DNA of 64,000 nucleotides from a virus (IMGVR_UViG_3300031857_000071:18271-82270), one strand, 5' to 3'. Shown: positions 10,081 to 47,928, counted from the first letter of the stretch. Made by a program: numbers and translations. Notes: a model not told the origin generated them from the sequence alone.

Positions 10081-10224
10081 ATGCAACACCATAAGTACAG
10101 TCTTACGGAACTTGAGAATATGATACCGTGGGAACGTGATGTATATGTTGGTATGCTTATACAATATATTGAGGAAGAAAATCAGAAGATTAAACAAAAG
10201 ATAAACGAGAGCAAAATTAGATGA
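10081..10224 (+). CDS. Small hypothetical ORF (47 aa) translationally coupled to the downstream gene
   Basis: ATG...TGA overlapping the ATG of 10221 (ATGA). Below the ORF-track size cutoff. Confidence 0.2.
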   Translation: MQHHKYSLTELENMIPWERDVYVGMLIQYIEEENQKIKQKINESKIR

Positions 10225-12260
10225 ACTACTACGATGCCGCCAGAATAAGAAAAAAAGGCTTCGCTAATTTAATGACAGATAAACTGACTTCAGGTCAGGG
10301 TATTTTTTCATCTAGACGAGATGCTTTGTCTGAAATGTCAAAGGCAAATTCTTTGGCTATGAAAGAACGTTTCGATCCAATGAATATTGCCAAGTTTCTC
10401 ACTGGCGGTAGCACTTTAGCACCAGCAATCGTTGGTCGCCTCACAGGCAGAAGCAAAGAAGATATTGGTTACTTTGCAGGTAAAAGACAATACCAATATA
10501 CACCAAGACAGTCGAACTACTGGCAAAAGTTTAATAGTCCAAATATGGGTGGAGGTGGCTCAAAGAAAGCTACACAGATTCTGGAAAAGATGGTCTCATT
10601 TATGGAAAAGACCAGATATGATGATGTGAAAGAGCAAGATACACTTGATTCTTATAATGAACTCAATGAATACATGAGAGCAGAGAACCACAAAGAAGTG
10701 GTGAATGTATTCAAAGAGGCAATTAAGAACAAACGCAAAGTCATGAAACACATGGCTAAAGAAGCAAAGAAACGTGCGGCTTACGAAAATTCTGTGAGTA
10801 AAAGAACACAAGCGGCGGAACGAAAGGCTCCTGCGCCTTCGGCTCCTTCAGCACCAACACCAGTTCCAGTACCCAGACCACCAGCACCGGCTCCTGCACC
10901 GGCTCCTAGACCACCAGCACCGGCACCTGCACCGGCACCTGCACCGGCACCTGCACCAGCACCAGCACCGGCTCCAGCACCGGCTCCAGCACCTAGACCA
11001 CCAGCACCGGCACCTGCACCGGCTCCAGCACCTAGACCACCAGCACCTGCACCGGCACCTGCACCGGCTCCAGCACCTAGACCACCAGCACCGGCTCCTG
11101 CACCGGCTCCTGCACCGGCTCCAGCACCTAGACCACCAGCACCGGCTCCTGCACCCAGACCACCAGCACCGGCACCCGCACCAGCACCTGCACCGGCTAG
11201 ACCACCTACTGCGGCACCTGCACCCCCAGCACCGGCTAGACCACCTACTGCGGCACCTGCACCTCCAGCACCCGCTAGACCACCTACTGCGGCACCTGCA
11301 CCACCAGTATCAATTCCACCGAGTGCCGCAATAGTTGGTGCCTTTGGGGTTGGAACTGTTGGTGCCGCTATTGCTGAAAAAATGGCCAAAAAAGAATCTG
11401 CCGGAGGTAAACCGGATTCTTATTATATGGCCAACATAGTAAGAGGAGGAACCAAAAGTGACACATCCAATTCATTTAGAATAATAAAAGGAAATATTGA
11501 TGTGACAACTGGCCAACCTTATCCAAAAGATTTGACTGATATGACCATAGCTGAAGTAGTTGAACTTGCCAATAGGAGGAGCCAACATTTTGACAAAGCA
11601 GGAGCCGGAGCGGCTATGGGTAAATATCAATTTATGCCACAAACGCTTGCCGGTAGATACGATAGGAAAACAAACACCTTTTTGCCGGGAGTAGCACAAA
11701 AAGTTTTCGGTCCTTGGGCAATGTATCAACCTTTTTCTAAAGAAAATCAAGAGATAATGCAACAGTTTTTGATGCGGGCAAATGCAAGAGCATTAATGAA
11801 AGATAATTTACCAATAACTGATGCAAATTTGTACATGTTACATTTTTCAGGTAATACAAGCATGGTGAGAAAAATGATGGCCGCAAATGATACTGATAGT
11901 ATGTCCACCATATTATCACCTGCTGCCGTCATAGCGAATAAAACAGTAGCGAATATGACTGTTGGTGAGTATAAAAGAAAAATTTTGAATATTTTTGACT
12001 CCAAAGTTATAACCTATCAGCAACTCACAGAAGGTATTAATGTTCCCACACCAACAGGAACACTTGAAGATTATCAGGCTGGAATGAGACTACAACAAGC
12101 TGAAGAAAAAAGGGCTGAAATGAGGTCAAGATTCCGAAGATCCGAAATACTACAACAAAACGGTGTTATGGTCAATCAAAACAACATTACAAATAGACAA
12201 AGAAATGTGAATGTGAATTCGGCACCTTTACAAGAATTAAATCCAAGAATAGGACACTAA
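10221..12260 (+). CDS. Large virion protein with three parts: a conserved N-terminal domain, a roughly 150-aa Pro-Ala repeat linker, and a C-terminal lytic-transglycosylase-like domain. Candidate hub/tape-measure or ejection protein.
   Basis: PAPAPAP/PRPPAPAPA repeats. SLT-like motif E(VVELANRRSQHFDKAGAGAA)MGKYQFMPQT fits E...GLMQxMPxT. The first 90 aa are paralogous to the next gene. Confidence 0.5.
   Translation: MNYYDAARIRKKGFANLMTDKLTSGQGIFSSRRDALSEMSKANSLAMKERFDPMNIAKFLTGGSTLAPAIVGRLTGRSKEDIGYFAGKRQYQYTPRQSNYWQKFNSPNMGGGGSKKATQILEKMVSFMEKTRYDDVKEQDTLDSYNELNEYMRAENHKEVVNVFKEAIKNKRKVMKHMAKEAKKRAAYENSVSKRTQAAERKAPAPSAPSAPTPVPVPRPPAPAPAPAPRPPAPAPAPAPAPAPAPAPAPAPAPAPAPRPPAPAPAPAPAPRPPAPAPAPAPAPAPRPPAPAPAPAPAPAPAPRPPAPAPAPRPPAPAPAPAPAPARPPTAAPAPPAPARPPTAAPAPPAPARPPTAAPAPPVSIPPSAAIVGAFGVGTVGAAIAEKMAKKESAGGKPDSYYMANIVRGGTKSDTSNSFRIIKGNIDVTTGQPYPKDLTDMTIAEVVELANRRSQHFDKAGAGAAMGKYQFMPQTLAGRYDRKTNTFLPGVAQKVFGPWAMYQPFSKENQEIMQQFLMRANARALMKDNLPITDANLYMLHFSGNTSMVRKMMAANDTDSMSTILSPAAVIANKTVANMTVGEYKRKILNIFDSKVITYQQLTEGINVPTPTGTLEDYQAGMRLQQAEEKRAEMRSRFRRSEILQQNGVMVNQNNITNRQRNVNVNSAPLQELNPRIGH
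10840..11300. repeat. Tandem nucleotide repeat (units like ccagcaccggctcctgcaccggct) encoding the (PA)n/PRPPAPAPA linker
   Basis: Directly visible near-identical 6-30 nt units over about 460 bp. The antisense GA-rich ORF 10781-11389 is an artefact of it. Confidence 0.85.
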
Positions 12261-16774: not shown

Positions 16775-17079
16775 ATGTGTTGAACATGGTGGTTGGTTAT
16801 TCTGTTACGAGGAAACCAACCGAAACCCTAGTCAGCGTTTAGGCTGCCAATGCGAACTTTTCATCGTTTGCGTTTACTTTGATTTAGTTTTTACACCTGC
16901 TCTGGTGAGTTGTCCACTTCTGTACTTGTTGCCCTGTCGAAACCTGGTCATCCCCATCAAAAACACACCCCATTACAGCCCTCAGAGGTTTCTTTCATGT
17001 AAGACATGTGTTTTTGGTGGAGATGGGCGGAATCGAACCGCCGTCCAGAACACTTTTCTAGTTGCTTCATACAACCATA
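16775..17079 (-). ncRNA. ssrA: Circularly permuted (two-piece) tmRNA (ssrA). The acceptor piece is upstream and the coding piece downstream. Tag peptide ANDEKFALAA.
   Basis: Acceptor-piece 3' end ...GGACGGCGGUUCGAUUCCGCCCAUCUCCACCA ends at 17015, with a T-arm and 3' acceptor strand. About 60 nt downstream (5' end at 16955) is GGGGAUGACCAGGUUUCGACAGGG, compare E. coli GGGGCUGAUUCUGGAUUCGACGGG. GGGGAUG pairs with CAUCUCC including a G3-U wobble. Tag ORF GCA AAC GAU GAA AAG UUC GCA UUG GCA GCC UAA at 16839-16871. Confidence 0.8.
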
Positions 17080-17085
17080 GCCTCT

Positions 17086-17114
17086 ATTATAGAGGTTTTT
17101 TATTTAGGTGTCAA
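17086..17114 (-). promoter_or_regulatory. Consensus sigma70-type promoter for the tmRNA precursor
   Basis: Minus strand TTGACA - 17 nt - TATAAT, about 8 nt upstream of the inferred precursor 5' end. Confidence 0.6.
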
Positions 17115-17140
17115 GCGTTTTTGTAGTTTAAATGGTAAAC

Positions 17141-29765: not shown

Positions 29766-30056
29766 AATATATTATAACATAATCACATCAAAATGGCAAG
29801 TGTTATTTCACGTTTGTTGCAAAAAAACAACAGTCTGGAACGCTCTAGGAGTGCCTAGGTCACTTGGCACTGTTCACGGCTTCTACAAGGCGCTTCCATT
29901 CGTCCTGATTGAGGAAAAACTCAACCTTAGACTGTATGGCATCTGGAAACTTAGCGCCTTGGTATTTGGTCGTTAGTTTCACATGTTTTAATTCACGTAT
30001 ATCATCTACTTCTAGGAAGTATTGATATTGTTGATATTCATCAGAAATTTGAAATC

Positions 30057-33894: not shown

Positions 33895-35067
33895 TTAGAA
33901 TGGTATTTCTTCATCAGGTGAGGTAGGCATCACAGGTGCGGTGTTTGCCTCCGCCACTTTGATATCAACCTTCGCATACAGGTCAAGGAACGAATCCTTG
34001 GTCTCTTGGTCAAAACGATTCACACACAGTTGAATTGCCTTCTGACGGTCTTTGAAGATTGAATAGGTCTTTGCAATGTGGACCAAACGGCGAGTGGAAA
34101 CAATCTCATCAACACCGCCTTCGGCAAATGTTTTACGAATAACATCAGCCCACTTCACAAGGTTCTCGGCAAACTCATCATCATTCAACAATGGTTTCAG
34201 AATCTTGAGTTCGACTTTGGACTCAGGATATTCCTGTTCCACGGTAATGTTGAAACGTTCAAGGAACGCATCATCAAGAATCTGTGAAAGGTAACGACCT
34301 TCTTCAGAGCCACGACCTTTAGTGTTTGCAGTAGCAACAACGTTGAAGCCACGTTTTGGATAGATGTATTCACCAGACTTTTTGTTGAAGTAAGGTTTGC
34401 CTTCGAGAATACCTTGGAGGCACATCAGTTTGTTAGAACCACGGTCAACTTCGTCAATCAACAGGATTGCACCACGTTTCATGGCAGTCATAACAGGACC
34501 ATCACGGTACACCACGTTACCATCAATCAGTGTAGGACCACCAATCAGGTCAGATTCATCGGTTTCAACGGAGATGTTAACACGGATGCATTCACGTTTG
34601 AGTGTAGCACACACTTGTTCAACCATCAGCGTTTTGCCATTGCCTGACATACCAGTGATAAACACGGGAAAGAATTCCTGTGATAGTACAATCGAGGTCA
34701 GGTCTTTGTAGAAACCAAAGGGCACATAGCCTTGGTACTTTTCGGGAATGGATGTGTCTGCATGGTCTTCGAGTTTCTTTTGACGGAGAACATGGACGGT
34801 TGCAGTTTGTGCCATTTCGACAACAGCAGGTTCTTCCATAACCGTTGCAGTCATGGCAGGACGCACAGCATTAGGTGCATCAGGAAGGAGGTACTGACCA
34901 CGATTCGCACGGAATTCTTGGCGAGTAACAAACCAGAAGGGATACGGGACTGACCGTTCATCAACGACACGTTGAATTTGGTCACGATTCAAAATTGCAT
35001 TCTCACCGAAAATCTCAGTAGCGGCTTGGACGAATGCTTTTGCATTACGATTCATAAAGTTCTCCAT
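33895..35067 (-). CDS. cobS: MoxR/CobS-family AAA+ ATPase (the gene usually annotated cobS in marine T4-like phages)
   Basis: Walker A ITGMSGNGKT, Walker B AILLIDEVDR, AAA_5-like layout, about 390 aa. Confidence 0.55.
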   Translation of the reverse strand: MENFMNRNAKAFVQAATEIFGENAILNRDQIQRVVDERSVPYPFWFVTRQEFRANRGQYLLPDAPNAVRPAMTATVMEEPAVVEMAQTATVHVLRQKKLEDHADTSIPEKYQGYVPFGFYKDLTSIVLSQEFFPVFITGMSGNGKTLMVEQVCATLKRECIRVNISVETDESDLIGGPTLIDGNVVYRDGPVMTAMKRGAILLIDEVDRGSNKLMCLQGILEGKPYFNKKSGEYIYPKRGFNVVATANTKGRGSEEGRYLSQILDDAFLERFNITVEQEYPESKVELKILKPLLNDDEFAENLVKWADVIRKTFAEGGVDEIVSTRRLVHIAKTYSIFKDRQKAIQLCVNRFDQETKDSFLDLYAKVDIKVAEANTAPVMPTSPDEEIPF

Positions 35068-35104
35068 AACAAGGTGTTTCTATTATATCACAGTTTCTGC
35101 CACA

Positions 35105-35135
35105 TGGCAACCATTTTTTGGTAGACATGTTGCAT
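35105..35135 (-). promoter_or_regulatory. Phage early-type promoter upstream of the cobS-like gene
   Basis: Minus strand TTGCCA-N17-TATAAT with TGnTATAAT extension. Same core as the island repeats. Confidence 0.45.
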
Positions 35136-41201: not shown

Positions 41202-42263
41202 AATGTTCTTTCAATATGGATAAGCCGAGAAAGTCTTTGCGTCCTTCATTAGACAATATGATGCACGGTTCATCCATCCGTCATTCTTCCGATGTGCCCG
41301 TGGTCCACGGAAACGGATTTTGTATTTACCAGGGTAAACAGAACGAAACTCATTCAGAAGATGAATTGGTATGTTAGTGAACACTGCGGCAGTATTCATC
41401 CGAGAATAGAATCGAAAAATATTAGACATTATGCCATCCATGGTTCATCAAAAGTATATGCATCAGATGCCAGATTCATCTCCTGAATTACAATAGAGAT
41501 ATGATATTCAGCATCAGTCCGAGAATAAAAGGTTTCTACAAGGGTTCCAGAATAGAATACCTCATAGAGTCCATCATCATTTTCAATAATATCAAACATT
41601 ATTCGTCCTCATCAACAGTAGCAAAGAGTTTAGCACCTTCGTCCATAAAGACAGAGAATGCCATCATAGTCTTTTCAGAATAGATCATTCTCCCATGCTT
41701 TTGAATGTCCTGAAGTAACTCCAAGAAACCAATTCCAAGAAAATTACGTTCTTTATCCAAGATAGAAATTGCAGTAGTGATTTTCATAGTAACTCCGTCA
41801 TTAAACCTTATAAACCTTTTCTTCAACAACGGGATAAACTGCCCTGAATGTAATCTTAGAACAATCAGAATAACGTTTCTTCAAGAAATTCCGAATTGCG
41901 GATACAGACTTAAAATAACCAGTAGCTTCAATCCACTGTCCTTCAAAATAAACCGAATACTGTTTCATAGTCATCCTTTGTTATCAATCAATAGAGAGAA
42001 TTATACACGTTCCAAGGAGAAAGGCAAGTAACCAAAAAGTTCTCCATCCTTCCGGTCAACTATTCACCGTTTGTAGTGAACCGGACGCTCATAACGACCT
42101 TCAGAGTCCCGATAAAGAGAGACATAATGACCGTATTTACTTCCATCATCAAAAGTATATGAGAAGGTAGAATCATAGGAGAGTGGAGGGAAGTTTAGTG
42201 CCCAAGATTCCAATAATCCTTCAGATTCAAGAGCAGAATTGAGGGTGGGAAAGAAGTTTTGTT

Positions 42264-42413: not shown

Positions 42414-42621
42414 TAGAGAGAGGTTGGAGCAATGCATAAAGTTATTAGAATCTTTATGTGCGGAGACCTGAATGAATTGGCGGGTGTTTGTGTTTGTCTG
42501 TGTCATGGATGGTATTATAGCGGAGATGGTAGGAATGGCAATAGGGTGGATGGAGGTGTTGCTCAAATACAACATGGAACATGGAATCTTTATAGGAAGA
42601 ACCAGTATGCAATATAGTGCA

Positions 42622-42641
42622 TGTGGATAACCTGTGGATAA
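42622..42641. promoter_or_regulatory. Two tandem perfect DnaA-box 9-mers (TTATCCACA on the minus strand) 11 bp apart
   Basis: Plus strand tgtggataacctgtggataa. Confidence 0.4.
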
Positions 42642-42964
42642 CTTTTTGGAATGTGCATGGAATGTGTAGCGGGACCTTAATTACTGACCAGTCAGTCAGT
42701 ATGTCGCTGGATGTGTCGCTGGCCATCGGCAGTGTGAAGTTCTTATTTAGTCTTAGTTGCTGGCTGTGAGCGCCTGAAATTTTCTCAGAGTGTCTCAGAG
42801 TACCACAGCACGTTCCAGTGGGTTCCAGCACGTTCCAGCATGTCCCTTGACGGTGTGGTAGAGTACCATTCAGAGCAGTGCAGAGGTGCTGGAGTGTGTT
42901 TGGGTGCTTCACGCATCCAGCGGGCAGCCTCTACGTCCATCCCCAGTGTGCTGTTCGAACCATG

Positions 42965-43010
42965 TGTCTATTATAACCGAAAAAACGCCACCTGGCAACC
43001 ACCAGGCGGC
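42965..43010 (-). terminator. Rho-independent terminator whose 3' arm and T-run overlap an early promoter
   Basis: Minus strand GCCGCCTGGTGGTTGCCAGGTGGC + GTTTTTTCGG. Also TTGCCA-N17-TATAAT. Confidence 0.5.
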
Positions 43011-43032
43011 TCACTGTTGTTTCTTTACAACA

Positions 43033-43260
43033 TCATTCTTCCTCAGAGAATCCTTCAGAGAGGACTATCTGGTCCTCATAGTAGTTCCGTTCCTCCTCCA
43101 TGCACAGGTTACCCTCTACCTCGAACACCAGGTCCGTGGCAGTCTTTTCATCACACCCAGTGGTGGACTTCACAAATGCAATAATGTCCTCGAATGCATC
43201 GCCATTGGAGATGCAGGTTTCAATATCCATCAGCAGGTCTTTCATCTTACTCATCATCTT
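43033..43260 (-). CDS. Small acidic hypothetical protein. The start is trimmed to avoid overlap with the upstream gene.
   Basis: MSKMKDLLMDIETCISNGDAFEDIIAFVKSTTGCDEKTATDLVFEVEGNLCMEEERNYYEDQIVLSEGFSEEE. GC-rich codons. Confidence 0.35.
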   Translation of the reverse strand, partial: KMMSKMKDLLMDIETCISNGDAFEDIIAFVKSTTGCDEKTATDLVFEVEGNLCMEEERNYYEDQIVLSEGFSEEE

Positions 43261-43726
43261 CCTCCTGTTCGGCTTCCCAATCGGCCATCTGGTCGGAGAT
43301 ACAGAATTCCTCATCCAATTCGGTCGGGAGAGTGTCTGCCACCTCTGCCGCATTCATGTCCGAGTATTCATAATAATCATCGAAGCCGTCTTCATACAGT
43401 CCAGCAAAGGCCATACCGGGTTCATAGTACATCGCCTTGACCTCGAAACCCATTTCTTCCATCGCACGGTACGCCTCTGTGGGTGGTGCCCAAGCGGAGT
43501 CGAAGGAGATTTTCAGGGTGTTTGGATTGGGTCGAATGTAGCCATTGTCACCACCGACATCCCATTTGGTGCCCCAGTTGGACACGCACCAATCATAATC
43601 CCATTCACCCTCATAGGGTACCAATGTTTCCAGCAGTTTACCATCAGTGAAACCAGCCACCGCCTTGTCAATCATGGCTGGGTCATCATGTTTCAGTGTG
43701 AGAGAATTAGAGCACCAATTTGGCAT
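43247..43726 (-). CDS. Hypothetical protein with an acidic C-terminal tail
   Basis: 159 aa, N-terminus MPNWCSNSLTLKHDDPAMIDK. GC-rich codon usage. Confidence 0.4.
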   Translation of the reverse strand: MPNWCSNSLTLKHDDPAMIDKAVAGFTDGKLLETLVPYEGEWDYDWCVSNWGTKWDVGGDNGYIRPNPNTLKISFDSAWAPPTEAYRAMEEMGFEVKAMYYEPGMAFAGLYEDGFDDYYEYSDMNAAEVADTLPTELDEEFCISDQMADWEAEQEEDDE

Positions 43727-43742
43727 GTTTCGTCCTTTGTTG

Positions 43743-43798
43743 AATGAATGATTGTATTATACAGGTTCTGGTTGGTTTGGCAACCATTACTTGACCGG
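43743..43798 (-). promoter_or_regulatory. Repeat cassette R1: inverted repeat TTGACC-N5-GGTCAA plus early promoter TTGCCA-N17-TATAAT
   Basis: Plus strand attatacaggttctggttggtttggcaaccattacttgaccggattggtcaac, upstream of the gene starting at 43726. Confidence 0.55.
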
Positions 43799-43921
43799 AT
43801 TGGTCAACTTCTTGTGGGTCACACCTTTCCGATAGGTGATATCGGGAATGCGGTGCGTCCTGTCTTTGAGCCAGTTTACCATGTAGGTCCATCGGGTGTC
43901 CATATTATTCTCCTTCATTAA

Positions 43922-44803
43922 TTAACCACAGATTGTGTATTCTGCCAAATCTTTCCACTTGGCACCAGCCGACTTGCGGATTTTGGTGGTCTGGATCAGT
44001 GTACGGAGTGACAGTTCTTTAACGTCATCTTGGAGGTTGTCAATCAGGTCCAGTGCATCGGACTTTTCTGTCTTTGAATACTCTGGCATAAATTCTGGCT
44101 GAGCCACAATGTAACGCATACGCTCCACCTTTTGCTCGGTCGTCATGGTCAGGTCAACCGCCATCGAACGGGTGATGATGGCTTGGTCCATCGAATCGGA
44201 GGACAGGTTGGAGATGAACACCACACGGCCTTTGAATTCGAAGGATTGTGGCAACTCGTCATCCTTCATGTCGGCACGCCATGAAATCACACGGCGAGAG
44301 TAGGAGTCCAAAGCACCTTTGAGCAGGTTCAGAGAGACCGGATCCTTTAGCACCGAGTCGCAATCATCAAAAACGACCACGCCGTCCTTGTTTTCGTACA
44401 GTGTACGGTAGAGGCCCTTAGGTGTAGAATAACCTTTAATGACACGGTAGGATTTTGAGGTGTTGAGTTTACCACCGACCTCGAATTCATCAAGGAGGGT
44501 AACGTCCCGCATACCGGCATCATTCAGTGCCTTGGTGACGGTGTGGGACTTTCCCAAGCCACCGGGACCAGAAACCACCACCGATGCTTGGTCGCCTTTG
44601 ACCAACATGTTGACCATGTCAGACACAAAGCCGAACCGCTGGTTGATGGTGAAGCGGGACTCCTTGACATTGATGGAAACACCACCGGGAGCGCCTGTAG
44701 CCTTTTTGATGACATAATCCATGTGCGCCTTGTTGGTGCGCTTCACCACCTTGCCATTGATGTTGGCAACGTACTTACCATTAATGAACTTGACTTCAAT
44801 CAT
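43922..44803 (-). CDS. P-loop NTPase, possibly AAA+/helicase-loader-like
   Basis: Walker A SGPGGLGKSHTV, Walker B GVVVFDDCD, 293 aa. Confidence 0.45.
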   Translation of the reverse strand: MIEVKFINGKYVANINGKVVKRTNKAHMDYVIKKATGAPGGVSINVKESRFTINQRFGFVSDMVNMLVKGDQASVVVSGPGGLGKSHTVTKALNDAGMRDVTLLDEFEVGGKLNTSKSYRVIKGYSTPKGLYRTLYENKDGVVVFDDCDSVLKDPVSLNLLKGALDSYSRRVISWRADMKDDELPQSFEFKGRVVFISNLSSDSMDQAIITRSMAVDLTMTTEQKVERMRYIVAQPEFMPEYSKTEKSDALDLIDNLQDDVKELSLRTLIQTTKIRKSAGAKWKDLAEYTICG

Positions 44804-44873
44804 ATAAACCTTTCAATTGTCAATACCATGTTGAAAAACACCACCGGGAGAGATGCTTTTTAATATGGTATCG

Positions 44874-44927
44874 ATTATACCAGAACCAGCAGGTTCTGGC
44901 AACCAATACTTGACCGGACAGGTCAAC
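44874..44927 (-). promoter_or_regulatory. Repeat cassette R2
   Basis: attataccagaaccagcaggttctggcaaccaatacttgaccggacaggtcaac. Reads on the minus strand as TTGACC-TGTCC-GGTCAA ... TTGCCA-N17-TGGTATAAT. Confidence 0.55.
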
Positions 44928-45201
44928 CTTTCGTCACAATGACGGGACCAGGTTTCCGTGCGGCTTTGCGAGCCTTCACGCCAACGGGGTTGGCCTTGTC
45001 CATAAGGCGAGCCAGTGTGGCTTGCGCCTTGCGGATGGACTCTTGGCGCTTTGCTTCCTTAGCGGTCGCCTTGGCCTGTACAGCCCGTTCCTTTTCGACC
45101 TTCACAGCCTCAGCCAATTCCTTGACGGAGACCTTAGCCTGTGCCAAAGCCGTACGGGCGGCGGCCAAAGCCACCTGGAGTTCTGTTTTTGCTTTCATCA
45201 T
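44923..45201 (-). CDS. Ala/Lys-rich histone H1-like / AlgP-like basic coiled-coil protein
   Basis: 92 aa, AKxxAxKAxxA periodic repeats. GC-rich codons. Confidence 0.45.
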   Translation of the reverse strand: MMKAKTELQVALAAARTALAQAKVSVKELAEAVKVEKERAVQAKATAKEAKRQESIRKAQATLARLMDKANPVGVKARKAARKPGPVIVTKG

Positions 45202-45225
45202 TCACCTTTCACATTAAAAACACAA

Positions 45226-45278
45226 TTATACCACCTGGCTACCATTTTGGCAACCAATACTTGACCGGACTGGTCAAC
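45226..45278 (-). promoter_or_regulatory. Repeat cassette R3
   Basis: attataccacctggctaccattttggcaaccaatacttgaccggactggtcaac. Confidence 0.55.
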
Positions 45279-45555
45279 AATCGGGGTCGAAGGACTCCCA
45301 CTCTTGGGCTTCGTCCGGTTGACCGTCATCCTCTGGCTCCATCTCGGAGTCGGTGAGACCTTCCACGAAAATGCCGTCCTCGGTCAAGGAGTCCACGTAG
45401 TCGTTGAAACCACAACGGAATGCTACTGGATCAACCTCACGCAGGACGTGGGAAGCGGAGTAGGTCATACCGCACAGTTCCACCGGACCCTCACAATCGT
45501 CCAGCATTTCCTCATACATTTCCAAGGCGGTTCGTTCGGATATCACTTGTTGCAT
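45274..45555 (-). CDS. Small acidic hypothetical protein
   Basis: 93 aa, high GC. Confidence 0.35.
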   Translation of the reverse strand: MQQVISERTALEMYEEMLDDCEGPVELCGMTYSASHVLREVDPVAFRCGFNDYVDSLTEDGIFVEGLTDSEMEPEDDGQPDEAQEWESFDPDC

Positions 45556-45586
45556 GTTCTTTCCTTTTCTTTCACAATATGGATTG

Positions 45587-45640
45587 GATTATACAGGTTT
45601 CGGTAGGTTTGTCAACCAATACTTGACCGGATTGGTCAGG
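45587..45640 (-). promoter_or_regulatory. Repeat cassette R4 (here the -35 is TTGACA)
   Basis: ggattatacaggtttcggtaggtttgtcaaccaatacttgaccggattggtcag. Confidence 0.55.
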
Positions 45641-45845
45641 TATCAAATTCGCAGGACTGGTTCAGGAACAGGTCCAGTTCCAATCCTTCGTTCAAAATAG
45701 CGGCAACTTCCATTGCCTCTTCCTCGGTATCGAACCGGTCGATGGACTCTCCGGAACGGACAGAATCGGACAATTGGGTCCAGCGGACCACACGGAAGTC
45801 CATGGTTTTGTCGTGGTATTCGGTGGTGTAGGTTTTGTTCATCAT
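45636..45845 (-). CDS. Small hypothetical protein. The N-terminal extension of the track ORF is rejected.
   Basis: MMNKTYTTEYHDKTMDFRVVRWTQLSD... The upstream 85 codons of track ORF 45636-46103 are read-through of repeat cassettes R5/R6. Confidence 0.3.
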   Translation of the reverse strand: MMNKTYTTEYHDKTMDFRVVRWTQLSDSVRSGESIDRFDTEEEAMEVAAILNEGLELDLFLNQSCEFDT

Positions 45846-45850
45846 GTCGT

Positions 45851-45915
45851 GGATTATACAGGTACCAGCAGGTTTGGCAACCATGCTGGCAATACTTGAC
45901 CAAAATGGTGGGTCA
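45851..45915 (-). promoter_or_regulatory. Repeat cassette R5 (inverted-repeat spacer about 9)
   Basis: ggattatacaggtaccagcaggtttggcaaccatgctggcaatacttgaccaaaatggtgggtca. Confidence 0.5.
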
Positions 45916-45967
45916 TTAATATGGCACCCAGCCTCCACGTCCACCCCAGTCCTGCTTTCGAATAGGT

Positions 45968-46072
45968 CCATTATACCAGAACCAGCCGGTTTGGCAAGTA
46001 ACCAAAAAGTACTCCATCCTTCCGGTGGGTCATTCCAACGGATGGTTGCCATTTCCGCTGGTTCTGGTATAC
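45968..46072. promoter_or_regulatory. Repeat cassette R6: divergent promoter pair. The minus-strand promoter is CTTGCCA-N17-TATAAT and the plus-strand promoter is TTGCCA-N16-TATACT driving gene 46089.
   Basis: cattataccagaaccagccggtttggcaag ... ggttgccatttccgctggttctggtatact, then RBS AAGGAAA and ATG at 46089. Confidence 0.5.
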
Positions 46073-46088
46073 TCCATTCCATAGTGAA

Positions 46089-46850
46089 TTGAAAAGGAAA
46101 CAAAAAATGAAATTACTCTCCACTGGCAACCCTAAGGTCCTCAAGGGCATGGCTCAAGGCTACAATACCTACATCCTGCACCTCGCACCAGCCAACCTGT
46201 CCGGCTTTGAGACCTGCGCCAAGCGGACCGCTGGTTGCACGGCGGCATGCCTGAACCTCGCTGGACGTGGTGGTATGTTCAAAAAAGGCGAGACCACCAA
46301 CGTTATCCAAAAGGCTAGAATCCGCAAAACCCAAATGTTTTTTGAGGCTCGCACCGGTTTTATGGAATGGCTTGTTGCCGATATTGAATTGGCCATTAAA
46401 CAATCCGCCAAAATCAATATGGTCCCAGTGATTCGCCTTAATGGTACATCGGACCTGGCATTCGAAAAGTATGCCGCCATCCGTAATGGTGTAGAATATA
46501 AAAACATTTTCATGGCATTCCCTGAAATTCAATTCTACGATTATACCAAGATTCTCGGCCGTAAAATTGCCGATTATCCCAATTATCACCTGACATTCTC
46601 CGCAGCCGATGGTAATGATTCGGACGTTGAAAAGGCTATTGCCCAAGGTTATAATGTAGCCGTGGTTTTTGGTATTAAGAAAACCCTCCCAATGCCTGCC
46701 GATTATCTCAATATGCCAGTTTTTAATGGTGACGAATCGGACCTCCGTTTTCTGGATCCAAAAGGTTCGGTTATTGGCTTATATGCCAAAGGCAAAGCCA
46801 AAAAAGATAATACTGGCTTTGTGAAATTCATTCAATTGGTCGCCGCTTAA
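46089..46850 (+). CDS. Hypothetical conserved phage protein (KxLSTGNPKxxKG N-terminal motif, Cys cluster CxxxxxxCxxxC)
   Basis: 253-aa ORF with good RBS. GC-rich codons. Confidence 0.4.
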   Translation: MKRKQKMKLLSTGNPKVLKGMAQGYNTYILHLAPANLSGFETCAKRTAGCTAACLNLAGRGGMFKKGETTNVIQKARIRKTQMFFEARTGFMEWLVADIELAIKQSAKINMVPVIRLNGTSDLAFEKYAAIRNGVEYKNIFMAFPEIQFYDYTKILGRKIADYPNYHLTFSAADGNDSDVEKAIAQGYNVAVVFGIKKTLPMPADYLNMPVFNGDESDLRFLDPKGSVIGLYAKGKAKKDNTGFVKFIQLVAA

Positions 46851-46865
46851 TATAAAGGAAACATT

Positions 46866-47087
46866 ATGTCCAAAATCAAATTACCATTCGAATGCATGGT
46901 TGGAACCGAGAATGAGGTTATTACCAATCCATTTTCTGGTCAATCCATTACATTATCTCCAGAGGCAGTTGCCGTATATGATACCATTATGGGTTGCCAA
47001 TTAATCGGGGATTATAAGAGAATGCAAAAGGGGCTGGATTGGTTCCGGCGCCACTTCCCAGAGGCTTACATGGTGCTCCTGGATTGA
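46866..47087 (+). CDS. Hypothetical protein
   Basis: 73-aa ORF, RBS AAAGGAAACA. Confidence 0.35.
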   Translation: MSKIKLPFECMVGTENEVITNPFSGQSITLSPEAVAVYDTIMGCQLIGDYKRMQKGLDWFRRHFPEAYMVLLD

Positions 47088-47150
47088 CCCACCACTCCGG
47101 TCAAGTATTCCAAGCATGGTTGCCAAAACCGGGCCCTTCCGCCATAATCC
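47084..47150 (+). promoter_or_regulatory. Repeat cassette R7 in plus orientation (TTGACC-N9-GGTCAA, TTGCCA-N17-CATAAT)
   Basis: Plus strand ggtcaagtattccaagcatggttgccaaaaccgggcccttccgccataatcc. Confidence 0.5.
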
Positions 47151-47179
47151 AACCATGTTGAATTTGAAAGGAAACAAAA

Positions 47180-47379
47180 TGACAGGTCAAGACCTCTCCA
47201 AGGCACTGGTTGCCGCCATCCAGAACCGCCAAGCCGTGCGTGGTTACAACCAGCAGGATGCCAATGCCTACACCGTTGGATACCTTGAGTCCCTCATTGG
47301 TACCTTGTGCAACCTCTCGCCTAAGGTCAAAAAAGAGGTTTTGAGCACCTTGGTATACGTAACCAATAATAAGGAGTAA
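47180..47379 (+). CDS. Hypothetical protein. The track ORF 47116-47379 is trimmed to the ATG after RBS AAAGGAAACAAA.
   Basis: MTGQDLSKALVAAIQNRQAVRGYNQQDANAYTVGYLESLIGTLCNLSPKVKKEVLSTLVYVTNNKE. Confidence 0.35.
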
Positions 47380-47382
47380 ATT

Positions 47383-47601
47383 ATGACTGATTTTGAAACC
47401 AAGTGCTATGGCATGAGCCAAGCCGATATCCGGAGCCAGTATATGGAGGGCTTGACCGCTCGCCTCTCCGGCTTGGAAATGGTGGTGATGGGCATCCTGT
47501 CCGATTGTCAGGAACTACAGGCTATGGGTCGGAATGAGGCAGTCCGTAAGCAATTGAACGTGGCTAAATTTATATTGTCGGAAATGATGGAGGGTAAGTA
47601 A
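47383..47601 (+). CDS. Hypothetical protein
   Basis: 72-aa ORF coupled to the upstream gene. Confidence 0.35.
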   Translation: MTDFETKCYGMSQADIRSQYMEGLTARLSGLEMVVMGILSDCQELQAMGRNEAVRKQLNVAKFILSEMMEGK

Positions 47602-47602
47602 T

Positions 47603-47707
47603 ATGTTTTCAGAAAATAAGTGGGAAGACCTTGCATTCAAGGTGGTGGCGGTGCTAGGCTTGGTGGTGGTGTTGCTGGACCTGCTATATTGGCGGGCAGG
47701 CTAAAGG
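47603..47707 (+). CDS. Small hydrophobic peptide (34 aa)
   Basis: RBS GGAGGG 8 nt upstream. MFSENKWEDLAFKVVAVLGLVVVLLDLLYWRAG. Confidence 0.3.
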
Positions 47708-47728
47708 TTGGGGACCAGTTGGTCGGAG

Positions 47729-47752
47729 GGACGCTTAGGCGTCCTTTTTTTG
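47729..47752 (+). terminator. Rho-independent terminator ending the plus-strand island operon
   Basis: GGACGCttagGCGTCC followed by TTTTTTT. Confidence 0.6.
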
Positions 47753-47928
47753 TGCTTAAAAATACCAGAGACAGTGCCTTAAAGGTAATACTATGTAAGT
47801 AATTTTGTGCTATGGCCCAAACTCTTTTTTCCCTATTTTTATTTTCTGGGGCCCCTAGCACGTTTTCGAATTTTTCACTTTCACATACCTTCGGAATTTT
47901 CTCCGGACCCCTCCACGTTTTTTCGAAT

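Follow-up and report, generated by a model that had tools for sequence, protein, structure and literature searches.

A divergently transcribed, GC-rich region of putative early genes with repeated hairpin-promoter cassettes in an uncultured T4-like phage

We analysed a GC-rich island of mostly small genes in a 64,000-nucleotide stretch of viral DNA (IMGVR_UViG_3300031857_000071:18271-82270; hereafter the window), in which a short cassette, composed of a hairpin followed by a sigma70-type promoter, is repeated ahead of successive genes. The window encodes T4-type proteins (baseplate hub/lysozyme, tail-tube cap, tail protein, large and small ribonucleotide reductase subunits, and exonuclease) as well as a CobS-like AAA+ protein and a CobT-like 'peptidase', the latter with its best cultured matches in cyanomyoviruses and pelagimyophages at ~36% amino-acid (aa) identity. 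This gene content points to an uncultured T4-like myovirus as the source, with cyanomyoviruses and pelagimyophages as its closest cultured kin. Nucleotide searches of the island, its flank and a G-rich motif described below against 50,697 phage records returned nothing useful; in metagenomes, however, the phage is common, and contigs 99-100% identical to the island were found in freshwater samples. Samples with contigs identical to the window include ERZ18651058 and JGI 3300008116.

Transcription of the island diverges near 46.0 kb, as a preliminary description of this DNA had proposed, from an inverted promoter pair at 45970-45997 (minus strand) and 46046-46073 (plus strand). The leftward unit consists, in order, of a non-coding motif, a 70-aa, a 93-aa and an Ala/Lys-rich 92-aa open reading frame (ORF), a P-loop NTPase gene, 38-aa, 159-aa and 74-aa ORFs, and a terminator; the rightward unit carries a GP88-family gene followed by 73-aa, 66-aa, 72-aa and 33-aa ORFs and a terminator. 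Two strong intrinsic terminators, at 42987-43010 (minus) and 47725-47748 (plus), bound the island. The cassettes and the divergent pair are as follows.

43756-43807, minus strand: cassette 1, with hairpin TTGACCaatccGGTCAA at 43791-43807 and promoter at 43756-43783
44874-44926, minus strand: cassette 2, with hairpin at 44910-44926, whose 5' arm includes the TGA stop of the Ala/Lys-rich gene, and promoter at 44874-44902
45225-45277, minus strand: cassette 3, with hairpin at 45261-45277 and promoter at 45225-45253
45588-45638, minus strand: cassette 4, with hairpin at 45624-45638 and promoter at 45588-45615 (-35 TTGACA)
45853-45915, minus strand: cassette 5, with variant hairpin TGACC-N9-GGTCA at 45897-45915 and promoter at 45853-45880
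45970-45997, minus strand, and 46046-46073, plus strand: divergent promoter pair, mutually inverted copies that are 85% complementary
47084-47148, plus strand: cassette 7, with hairpin TTGACC-N9-GGTCAA at 47084-47104 and promoter at 47120-47148

All seven cassette positions of the preliminary description hold a TTG(C/A)CA-N16/17-TATAAT promoter (7/7), and the copies align with one another over ~75-90 nt, a span that covers the hairpin, -35, spacer, -10 and the start of the 5' untranslated region (5'UTR). On the minus strand, these promoters have their ends at 43756, 44874, 45225, 45588, 45853 and 45970; on the plus strand, they begin at 46046 and 47120. Additional promoters of the same family at 42000, 42514 and 42970 give 11 promoters in 5.2 kb, compared with ~10 good ones across the remaining 59 kb. 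The 11 promoters of 42.0-47.15 kb score 10-12 of 12 against the consensus, as do the nine copies of the island type, and the promoter scan overall returned 24 promoter-like sites vs. 10.0 ± 3.9 in shuffled sequence. A Shine-Dalgarno (SD) sequence and start codon follow closely in 7 of the nine island-type copies (42000, 43756, 44874, 45225, 45588, 46046 and 47120), while of the remaining two, 45853 leads into an apparently leaderless ORF and 45970 into the non-coding motif. The earlier claim that every cassette stands just upstream of a small gene was accurate except for promoter 45970, which heads no gene, and except for the size of two cassette-driven products, the P-loop protein of 293 aa and GP88 of 247 aa. 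The same promoter core was also correctly attributed to the cobS-like gene, albeit at 35105-35135, whereas it actually lies at 35082-35110.

The hairpin of the island cassettes reads TTGACC-N5-GGTCAA in four copies and TGACC-N9-GGTCA in two, and ends 7-15 nt before the -35; the hairpin-to--35 interval holds only GTATTGG, and an extended AT tract was not seen there. Direct reading of the sequence places the TGA stop codon of the upstream gene within the 5' arm in four cases. The box CCGGTCAAGTATT (≤2 mismatches) occurs in 7 copies vs. 1.2 expected, a count reached in 0 of 100 shuffles. Considering the 36 nt 5' of 19 promoters, the mean minimum free energy is -7.1 kcal/mol vs. -3.8 kcal/mol in random 36-mers (p = 2e-6, Mann-Whitney test), and in the island alone -8.9 vs. 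-5.5 (p = 9e-4). Three island hairpins pass a lenient terminator scan, with stems of 5-6 bp and a weak U-tract. At least four unrelated hairpin sequences hold the same pre-promoter position, which argues that a structure is kept rather than one binding sequence. Backbone promoters at 29771, 35082, 35500, 42514, 42970 and 52961 (minus), for instance, carry the stem TGTTGT-(A/T-rich loop)-ACAACA 7-17 nt 5' of the -35, and some other backbone promoters carry still different stems; the layout, which resembles the promoter early stem-loops (PeSLs) of T4-type phages, is therefore genome-wide with at least two stem families. Since the TTGACC-N5-GGTCAA hairpin is unlike the TGTTGT...ACAACA stem, the island cassettes are a property of the island rather than of the backbone. 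Neighboring cassette copies share identical blocks of at least 33 bp.

The genes and terminators that these cassettes punctuate are listed next.

42970-43010, minus strand: composite terminator/promoter, in which a 10-bp G+C-rich hairpin with T-run (42987-43010) ends the leftward unit
43033-43257, minus strand: ORF for a 74-aa small acidic protein, the last gene of the leftward unit, with 74-84% aa identity in relatives
43247-43726, minus strand: 159-aa acidic protein beginning MPNWCSN (phrog_20518)
43787-43903, minus strand: 38-aa ORF, whose 3' end reads through the cassette 1 hairpin
43922-44803, minus strand: P-loop NTPase of 293 aa, T4 NrdC.10 family (phrog_1250)
44923-45201, minus strand: ORF for the Ala/Lys-rich protein, 92 aa
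45274-45555, minus strand: 93-aa acidic protein (phrog_9294), with its TGA stop in a hairpin arm
45636-45848, minus strand: 70-aa protein, with its ATG 7 nt past the -10 of promoter 45853 (45846-45852)
46107-46850, plus strand: GP88-family protein of 247 aa (PF17338), with invariant Cys37, Cys44 and Cys48; opens the rightward unit
46866-47087, plus strand: 73-aa protein, with its TGA stop (47085-47087) in a hairpin arm
47179-47379, plus strand: 66-aa ORF
47383-47601, plus strand: 72-aa ORF
47603-47704, plus strand: 33-aa ORF
47725-47748, plus strand: strong intrinsic terminator, the end of both the rightward unit and the GC-rich island

The left terminator folds at -24.9 kcal/mol (z = -4.0) and is kept in relatives; the -35 (TTGCCA) of the promoter at 42970-42998 sits in its loop and 3' arm. 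By sequence comparison, the P-loop protein is a homologue of T4 NrdC.10: it matches phrog_1250 with E = 1e-62, aligns with nrdC.10 of Aeromonas phages 31 and 44RR at 30% identity over 97% of its length, and is matched by 1304 phage records, most of them T4-like. The 5'UTR of its gene (44804-44873, minus; 70 nt) is conserved in two related contigs (L005 and L018) and replaced by a short UTR in another (L016); its RNA can form a long-range stem (CCAU..AUGG) around an A5-stem-U5 hairpin, with a fold z of only -0.3, and could be an attenuator or translational control element. Because the ATG of the 70-aa ORF lies only 7 nt past the -10, an arrangement that is the same in relatives, its mRNA is probably leaderless. 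The GP88 protein matches PF17338 with 126 bits (cut-off 24.4) over profile positions 2-227 of 230 and has at least 8000 metagenomic homologues; a literature search found no functional study of PF17338/GP88. We do not favor a role for GP88 as a replication initiator, since a fold search pointed to an enzyme-like barrel; tentatively, the protein might be radical-SAM-like. With regard to the host-takeover or anti-defence functions suggested for the cargo in the preliminary description, PADLOC and NCBIfam gave 0 matches for 10 island proteins (the set without the 38-aa and 33-aa ORFs), and searches of PDB sequences with GP88, the P-loop protein and the 159-aa protein gave no match below E = 0.05.

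Base composition sets this region apart. In 400-nt windows, GC content (fraction) is 0.35-0.43 left of ~42.4 kb, 0.46-0.55 over 42.6-46.4 kb, down to 0.41-0.43 at 46.4-47.2 kb (within and just past the GP88 gene), and back at ~0.49 until 47.8 kb, where it drops to ~0.40; binning the whole window at 1 kb revealed no bin above 0.48 outside the island. The GC jump of the preliminary description is thus real, with a rise to 48-52% over 42.6-47.8 kb, and a window background of ~38-40% in place of the ~35% that had been estimated. The GC-rich block comprises both transcription units plus a non-coding tract with iteron-like repeats and DnaA boxes (42542-42969) beyond the left terminator. GC content at third codon positions (GC3) is 0.47-0.73 in 12 island ORFs vs. 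0.32 ± 0.06 in 43 backbone ORFs, the deviant composition expected of a genomic island, while GC at first and second codon positions (GC1 and GC2) is indistinguishable between the two sets; the shift is almost purely synonymous. Elsewhere in the window, further local rises reach 48% in 11000-12000, inside a 679-aa ORF (10221-12260), and 45% in 34000-35000, in the cobS-like gene.

To place the island among its relatives, we used contigs found by exact-pattern and protein-anchored scans of IMG/VR, in which the loci are partial; related contigs include IMGVR_UViG_3300044695_004134, 3300028392_000053 and 3300010157_000062. The island lies between the same flanking genes in L016/L020, L018/L017, L013, L005/L009 and L080 (our handles for these contigs), with proteins at 75-94% aa identity, and nucleotide identity to relatives is 76-88% in the island vs. 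73-83% in the flanks. The relatives' islands have 45-51% GC vs. ~39% elsewhere. Thus the absence from close relatives, or presence at another locus, that would mark a genomic island was not observed in any of these contigs, nor did we find an integrase, a tRNA or flanking direct repeats at the island, whose boundaries are terminators. These comparisons contradict the earlier notion of foreign cargo under native promoters: relatives share the genes, their locus and their GC, the cassettes have their own hairpin type, and the P-loop gene belongs to the NrdC.10 family. They likewise count against the possibility that the whole island is an indel, as relatives carry the same genes at the same composition; with locus and GC shared in this way, the island is therefore neither an indel nor a recent import.

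Single genes, in contrast to the island as a whole, do come and go, and the shuffling at cassettes that had been suggested is reflected in indel junctions inside cassettes between relatives. The Ala/Lys-rich gene plus one cassette forms a 351-bp unit that is present in the window and L018 but in neither L016 nor L005; at the L005 junction, the window cassettes at 45225 and 44874 are fused into a hybrid, with the crossover within their common 33-bp block. The 159-aa gene at 43247 together with the cassette at 43756 is an insertion limited to the window's strain group; it rewrote the end of the 38-aa ORF, and relatives without the insertion have another C-terminus there. Gene 47179 (66 aa) is missing from L018, and L016, L018 and L005 each contain additional cassette-bounded small genes. 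A contig 99.3-100% identical to the window (L150; JGI 3300008116) has an in-frame 81-nt deletion in the P-loop gene (44242-44317) and a 69-nt deletion between two TTGACCG repeats (45259-45327) that removes the hairpin of the cassette at 45225 and the end of the 93-aa gene; these deletions could be real microdiversity or an assembly artefact.

Repeated hairpin-promoter units, their local concentration, and indels of units with junctions in the repeats are thus direct observations, and we consider it likely that the segment is a divergently transcribed, hyperplastic early-gene region with PeSL-like cassettes in a vertically conserved island. The likeness to PeSLs, first raised in the preliminary description, extends to the succession of hairpin, sigma70-type promoter, SD and ATG and to the clustering of copies in a variable early region of a T4-type genome. 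In our model, host sigma70 RNA polymerase would read from the pair at ~46.0 kb leftward to 42987-43010 and rightward to 47725-47748, through cassettes ordered as hairpin (usually with an upstream TGA), 7-15 nt, TTGCCA-N16/17-(TG)nTATAAT, short 5'UTR with SD, and ORF. The promoters would be early and dependent on the host polymerase, and the hairpins would serve as weak terminators, attenuators or 3'-end stabilisers that limit read-through, so that each gene would be expressed at a level set by its own promoter. Units of [promoter - gene - hairpin] would be excised or inserted by phage homologous recombination between the 33-90 bp repeats, and neighboring genes would be left undisturbed by the addition or deletion of a unit. 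The island as a whole would be inherited vertically in the clade, with a long-standing high GC3 and no mark of recent import.

Several points weigh against this interpretation. The indel at 47179 falls on a gene boundary without two flanking cassettes, and the hairpins are only 5-6 bp long and lack a clear U-tract. Some relatives that lost the 5' arm keep CCGGTCAAGTATT, which hints that part of the conserved cassette sequence may act as DNA and not as RNA structure. Both the timing of the promoters and termination at the hairpins are features we infer, and the cause of the high GC3 falls outside what this model explains.

A second conserved element accompanies the cassettes. The motif TTCGAA…GGGGTGGACG, in the form TTCGAA-N9-GGGG(A)TGGACGT(G/A)GAGGCTG, occupies ~47 nt directly after promoters 45970 and 42970, the second of which reads into the iteron-like tract.

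45923-45969, minus strand: motif copy A, GGACCTATTCGAAAGCAGGACTGGGGTGGACGTGGAGGCTGGGTGCC, without an ORF; after promoter 45970
42923-42969, minus strand: motif copy B, ..GGTTCGAACAGCACACTGGGGATGGACGTAGAGGCTGCC; after promoter 42970
42542-42922, minus strand: iteron-like tract, non-coding and GC-rich, with short direct repeats; transcribed from promoter 42970

A degenerate pattern scan of IMG/VR recovered at least 120 loci with related motifs. A sigma70 promoter precedes the motif in 58 of 108 distinct matches, with 7-11 nt between the end of the -10 and TTCGAA (24 nt in one outlier). Strong promoters stand ahead of the motif in at least 50 distinct contigs of viruses, where a GP88 gene is usually found in divergent orientation. 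The general form is TTCGAA-N7-10-GGGG(N)TGGACG-NN-GAG..TG at ~+5 to +45 of the promoter, with TGGACG-NN-GAG-NN-TG conserved beyond the search pattern and the 30 nt from GGGG onward made up of 51% G and 18% C. Of 21 loci, 19 have a GP88 homologue divergent from the motif and 130-3180 nt upstream of it, at 400-1050 nt in most cases, and the GP88, 73-aa, 72-aa and 159-aa proteins turn up beside this motif in numerous further contigs. Downstream of the motif, many loci show >600 nt devoid of ORFs, and about one third have DnaA-box arrays. The island may be built around this widespread and apparently undescribed element. Near the other end of the segment, past the right terminator, two degenerate intergenic direct repeats AAATTCGAAAA(AA)CGTG..GGGG..CC (47852-47870 and 47908-47927, minus) resemble the TTCGAA..GGGG motif, with no recognisable promoter there.

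Neither the motif nor the cassettes match an Rfam family at the gathering threshold or at permissive E-values, and literature searches with the motif sequence returned irrelevant matches only. A structured small RNA is unsupported, since RNAalifold gave no consensus structure for 47 motif copies and single motifs fold no better than shuffled sequence; covarying arms around TTCGAA, an impression gained by eye, were not confirmed. We also discarded a conserved small ORF, given an ATG that varies and a reading frame that shifts from one subfamily to the next.

The ~380-nt tract that follows copy B contains paired or triplicate repeats of 7-10 nt (CTGGAAC x3, CTCTGAGA x2, CAGCGACA x2 and TTCCATG x2) and two perfect tandem DnaA boxes, TTATCCACA, at 42622-42630 and 42633-42641 (minus), 11 bp apart. 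The repeat types recur in L016, L018 and L013 in variable numbers, with many indels that are not multiples of 3; the DnaA boxes recur in L016 and L018, and L013 has none. Across the window, DnaA boxes (≤1 mismatch) occur at chance level (24 vs. 25 expected), and we attach significance only to the perfect tandem pair and to its conservation among relatives. We regard 42542-42922 as a candidate origin or regulatory region.

The motif might act as a transcription-primed origin, as a regulatory site close to the promoter, or as a regulatory RNA that lacks structure. Transcription-primed origins include the R-loops of T4 oriF/oriG, ColE1 RNA II and mitochondrial conserved sequence block II (CSBII). 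The motif resembles these by analogy in combining a strong promoter with a G-rich non-template tract within ~20-45 nt, a likeness that for copy B would extend to the iteron-like repeats and DnaA boxes that follow; it differs in having no sequence similarity to them, and copy A here precedes genes and not repeats. The compound proposal that the motif is an R-loop-type transcription-primed origin or another new early control site, and that selection or biased conversion maintains the GC3-rich module, remains tentative and in our view rather unlikely. Both the linkage of the motif to GP88 and DnaA boxes and the persistence of a GC3-rich early module in lineages whose backbones are AT-rich are relevant to the onset of infection and replication in these phages.

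With regard to the high GC3 itself, the explanation with a slight lead, although we stop short of calling it probable, is that third-position GC richness is actively maintained by selection or by biased gene conversion and is not a relic of transfer. Selection might favor evasion of silencers or nucleases that target AT-rich DNA, or efficient immediate-early expression, while the conversion route could operate if the region is a recombination hot-spot. Blocks of 46-52% GC stand at or beside the equivalent promoter and motif in L049, L087, L144, L060, L038, L115 and L127, whose backbones are at 33-41%, and the GP88-like gene of L087 has a GC3 of 0.61 vs. 0.2-0.35 in its neighbors; persistence across lineages at aa identities expected to saturate synonymous sites points to a continuing force. 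Such a force sits less easily with low-GC relatives whose genes have a backbone-like GC3, such as the P-loop genes of L134 and L060 (0.40-0.42) and the GP88 gene of L010 (0.42).

A possible account that we rate only slightly lower is that the whole early module was swapped in from a GC-richer related phage (45-48% GC) before the clade split, with the conserved promoter and motif sequences mediating the exchange. Homologous modules in contigs of 44-48% GC have a GC3 of 0.55-0.65, near that of the island, the boundaries are terminator/promoter elements, and promoter plus motif occur twice, one copy at each edge of the leftward block (42970 and 45970), all in line with such a swap; yet no close donor was found, the best cross-clade identities being 35-66%, and identities to L010 or L115 reveal no clear discordance between island and backbone.

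It is improbable, to our judgment, that the inverted repeat 5' of the -35 is an operator or activator site for a protein and not an RNA hairpin or terminator. Such a site would fit the better conservation of CCGGTCAAGTATT than of the 5' arm and the copies that have the box without a hairpin, but is opposed by the variable loop (5 or 9 nt) and distance to the -35 (7 or 15 nt), by the unrelated hairpin sequences that take this place at other promoters, and by the stop codon embedded in the arm. Lastly, although a sharp GC3 jump (0.6 vs. 0.32) with bounds within a few hundred bases and the use of the TTGCCA-N17-TATAAT promoter type in the backbone too might suggest a recently acquired foreign island with its cargo under native phage promoters, this is very unlikely given that all close relatives share the island together with its locus and composition, that no integrase, tRNA or flanking repeat was found, that the cassettes have their own hairpin type, that the genes are family-typical (NrdC.10 with 1304 T4-like records, and GP88 tied to the same motif in distant lineages), and that island nucleotide identity to relatives is not below that of the flanks.

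Away from the island, the window also carries a two-piece (permuted) transfer-messenger RNA (tmRNA) at 16781-17128 (minus) with the tag ANDEKFALAA, which scores 155 bits against Rfam beta_tmRNA and 132 bits against tmRNA_permuted and has its own TTGACA-N17-TATAAT promoter (17086-17114, minus). An attempt to infer the host from its 3' piece was unsuccessful, as the 25-mer matches many phyla.

Returning to the favored interpretation of a vertically conserved early region with PeSL-like cassettes, we compared it with known systems. As an analogy only, the units recall integron gene cassettes in being single ORFs with an imperfect inverted repeat right after the stop and variable presence; here, however, there is no integrase and no attC/attI, each unit has its own promoter, and exchange is apparently homologous. 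The nrdC-tk region of T4 (nrdC.1-nrdC.11) likewise places an NrdC.10-family P-loop gene among small early ORFs, although only this one gene is recognisably shared, at 30% aa identity. The closest parallel is with the PeSLs of RB49/phi1, T4/PST and KVP40/nt-1 (PMC2839356, PMC4122927), in which a stem-loop also lies directly 5' of a sigma70-like -35/N17/-10 followed by SD and ATG, copies are clustered in a hyperplastic early region, and the repeats hold the junctions of single-ORF indels or replacements that distinguish close relatives. Two further PeSL traits, termination by the stem-loop and mini-circles formed when neighboring cassettes recombine, would be predictions for this region. The stem here is instead TTGACC/GGTCAA (TGTTGT/ACAACA in the backbone) and not a G-run/C-run or A3-4G3/C3T3-4, the -35 is TTGCCA, and there is no obvious AT-rich UP-like tract of the kind described 5' of the -35 in the RB49/phi1 PeSLs (PMC2839356, PMC4122927). 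Moreover, this GC3-rich region comes from an uncultured freshwater lineage nearer to the cyanomyoviruses, whereas the documented cases of PeSL shuffling have until now been three pairs of T4-type phages in culture, from enterobacteria and vibrios (PMC2839356, PMC4122927). The same architecture, with other stems and another -35, can now be recognised in an uncultured and highly abundant freshwater lineage, and because natural relatives there gain and lose single genes cleanly at cassette junctions, these findings support the idea that the mechanism is general across T4-like phages.

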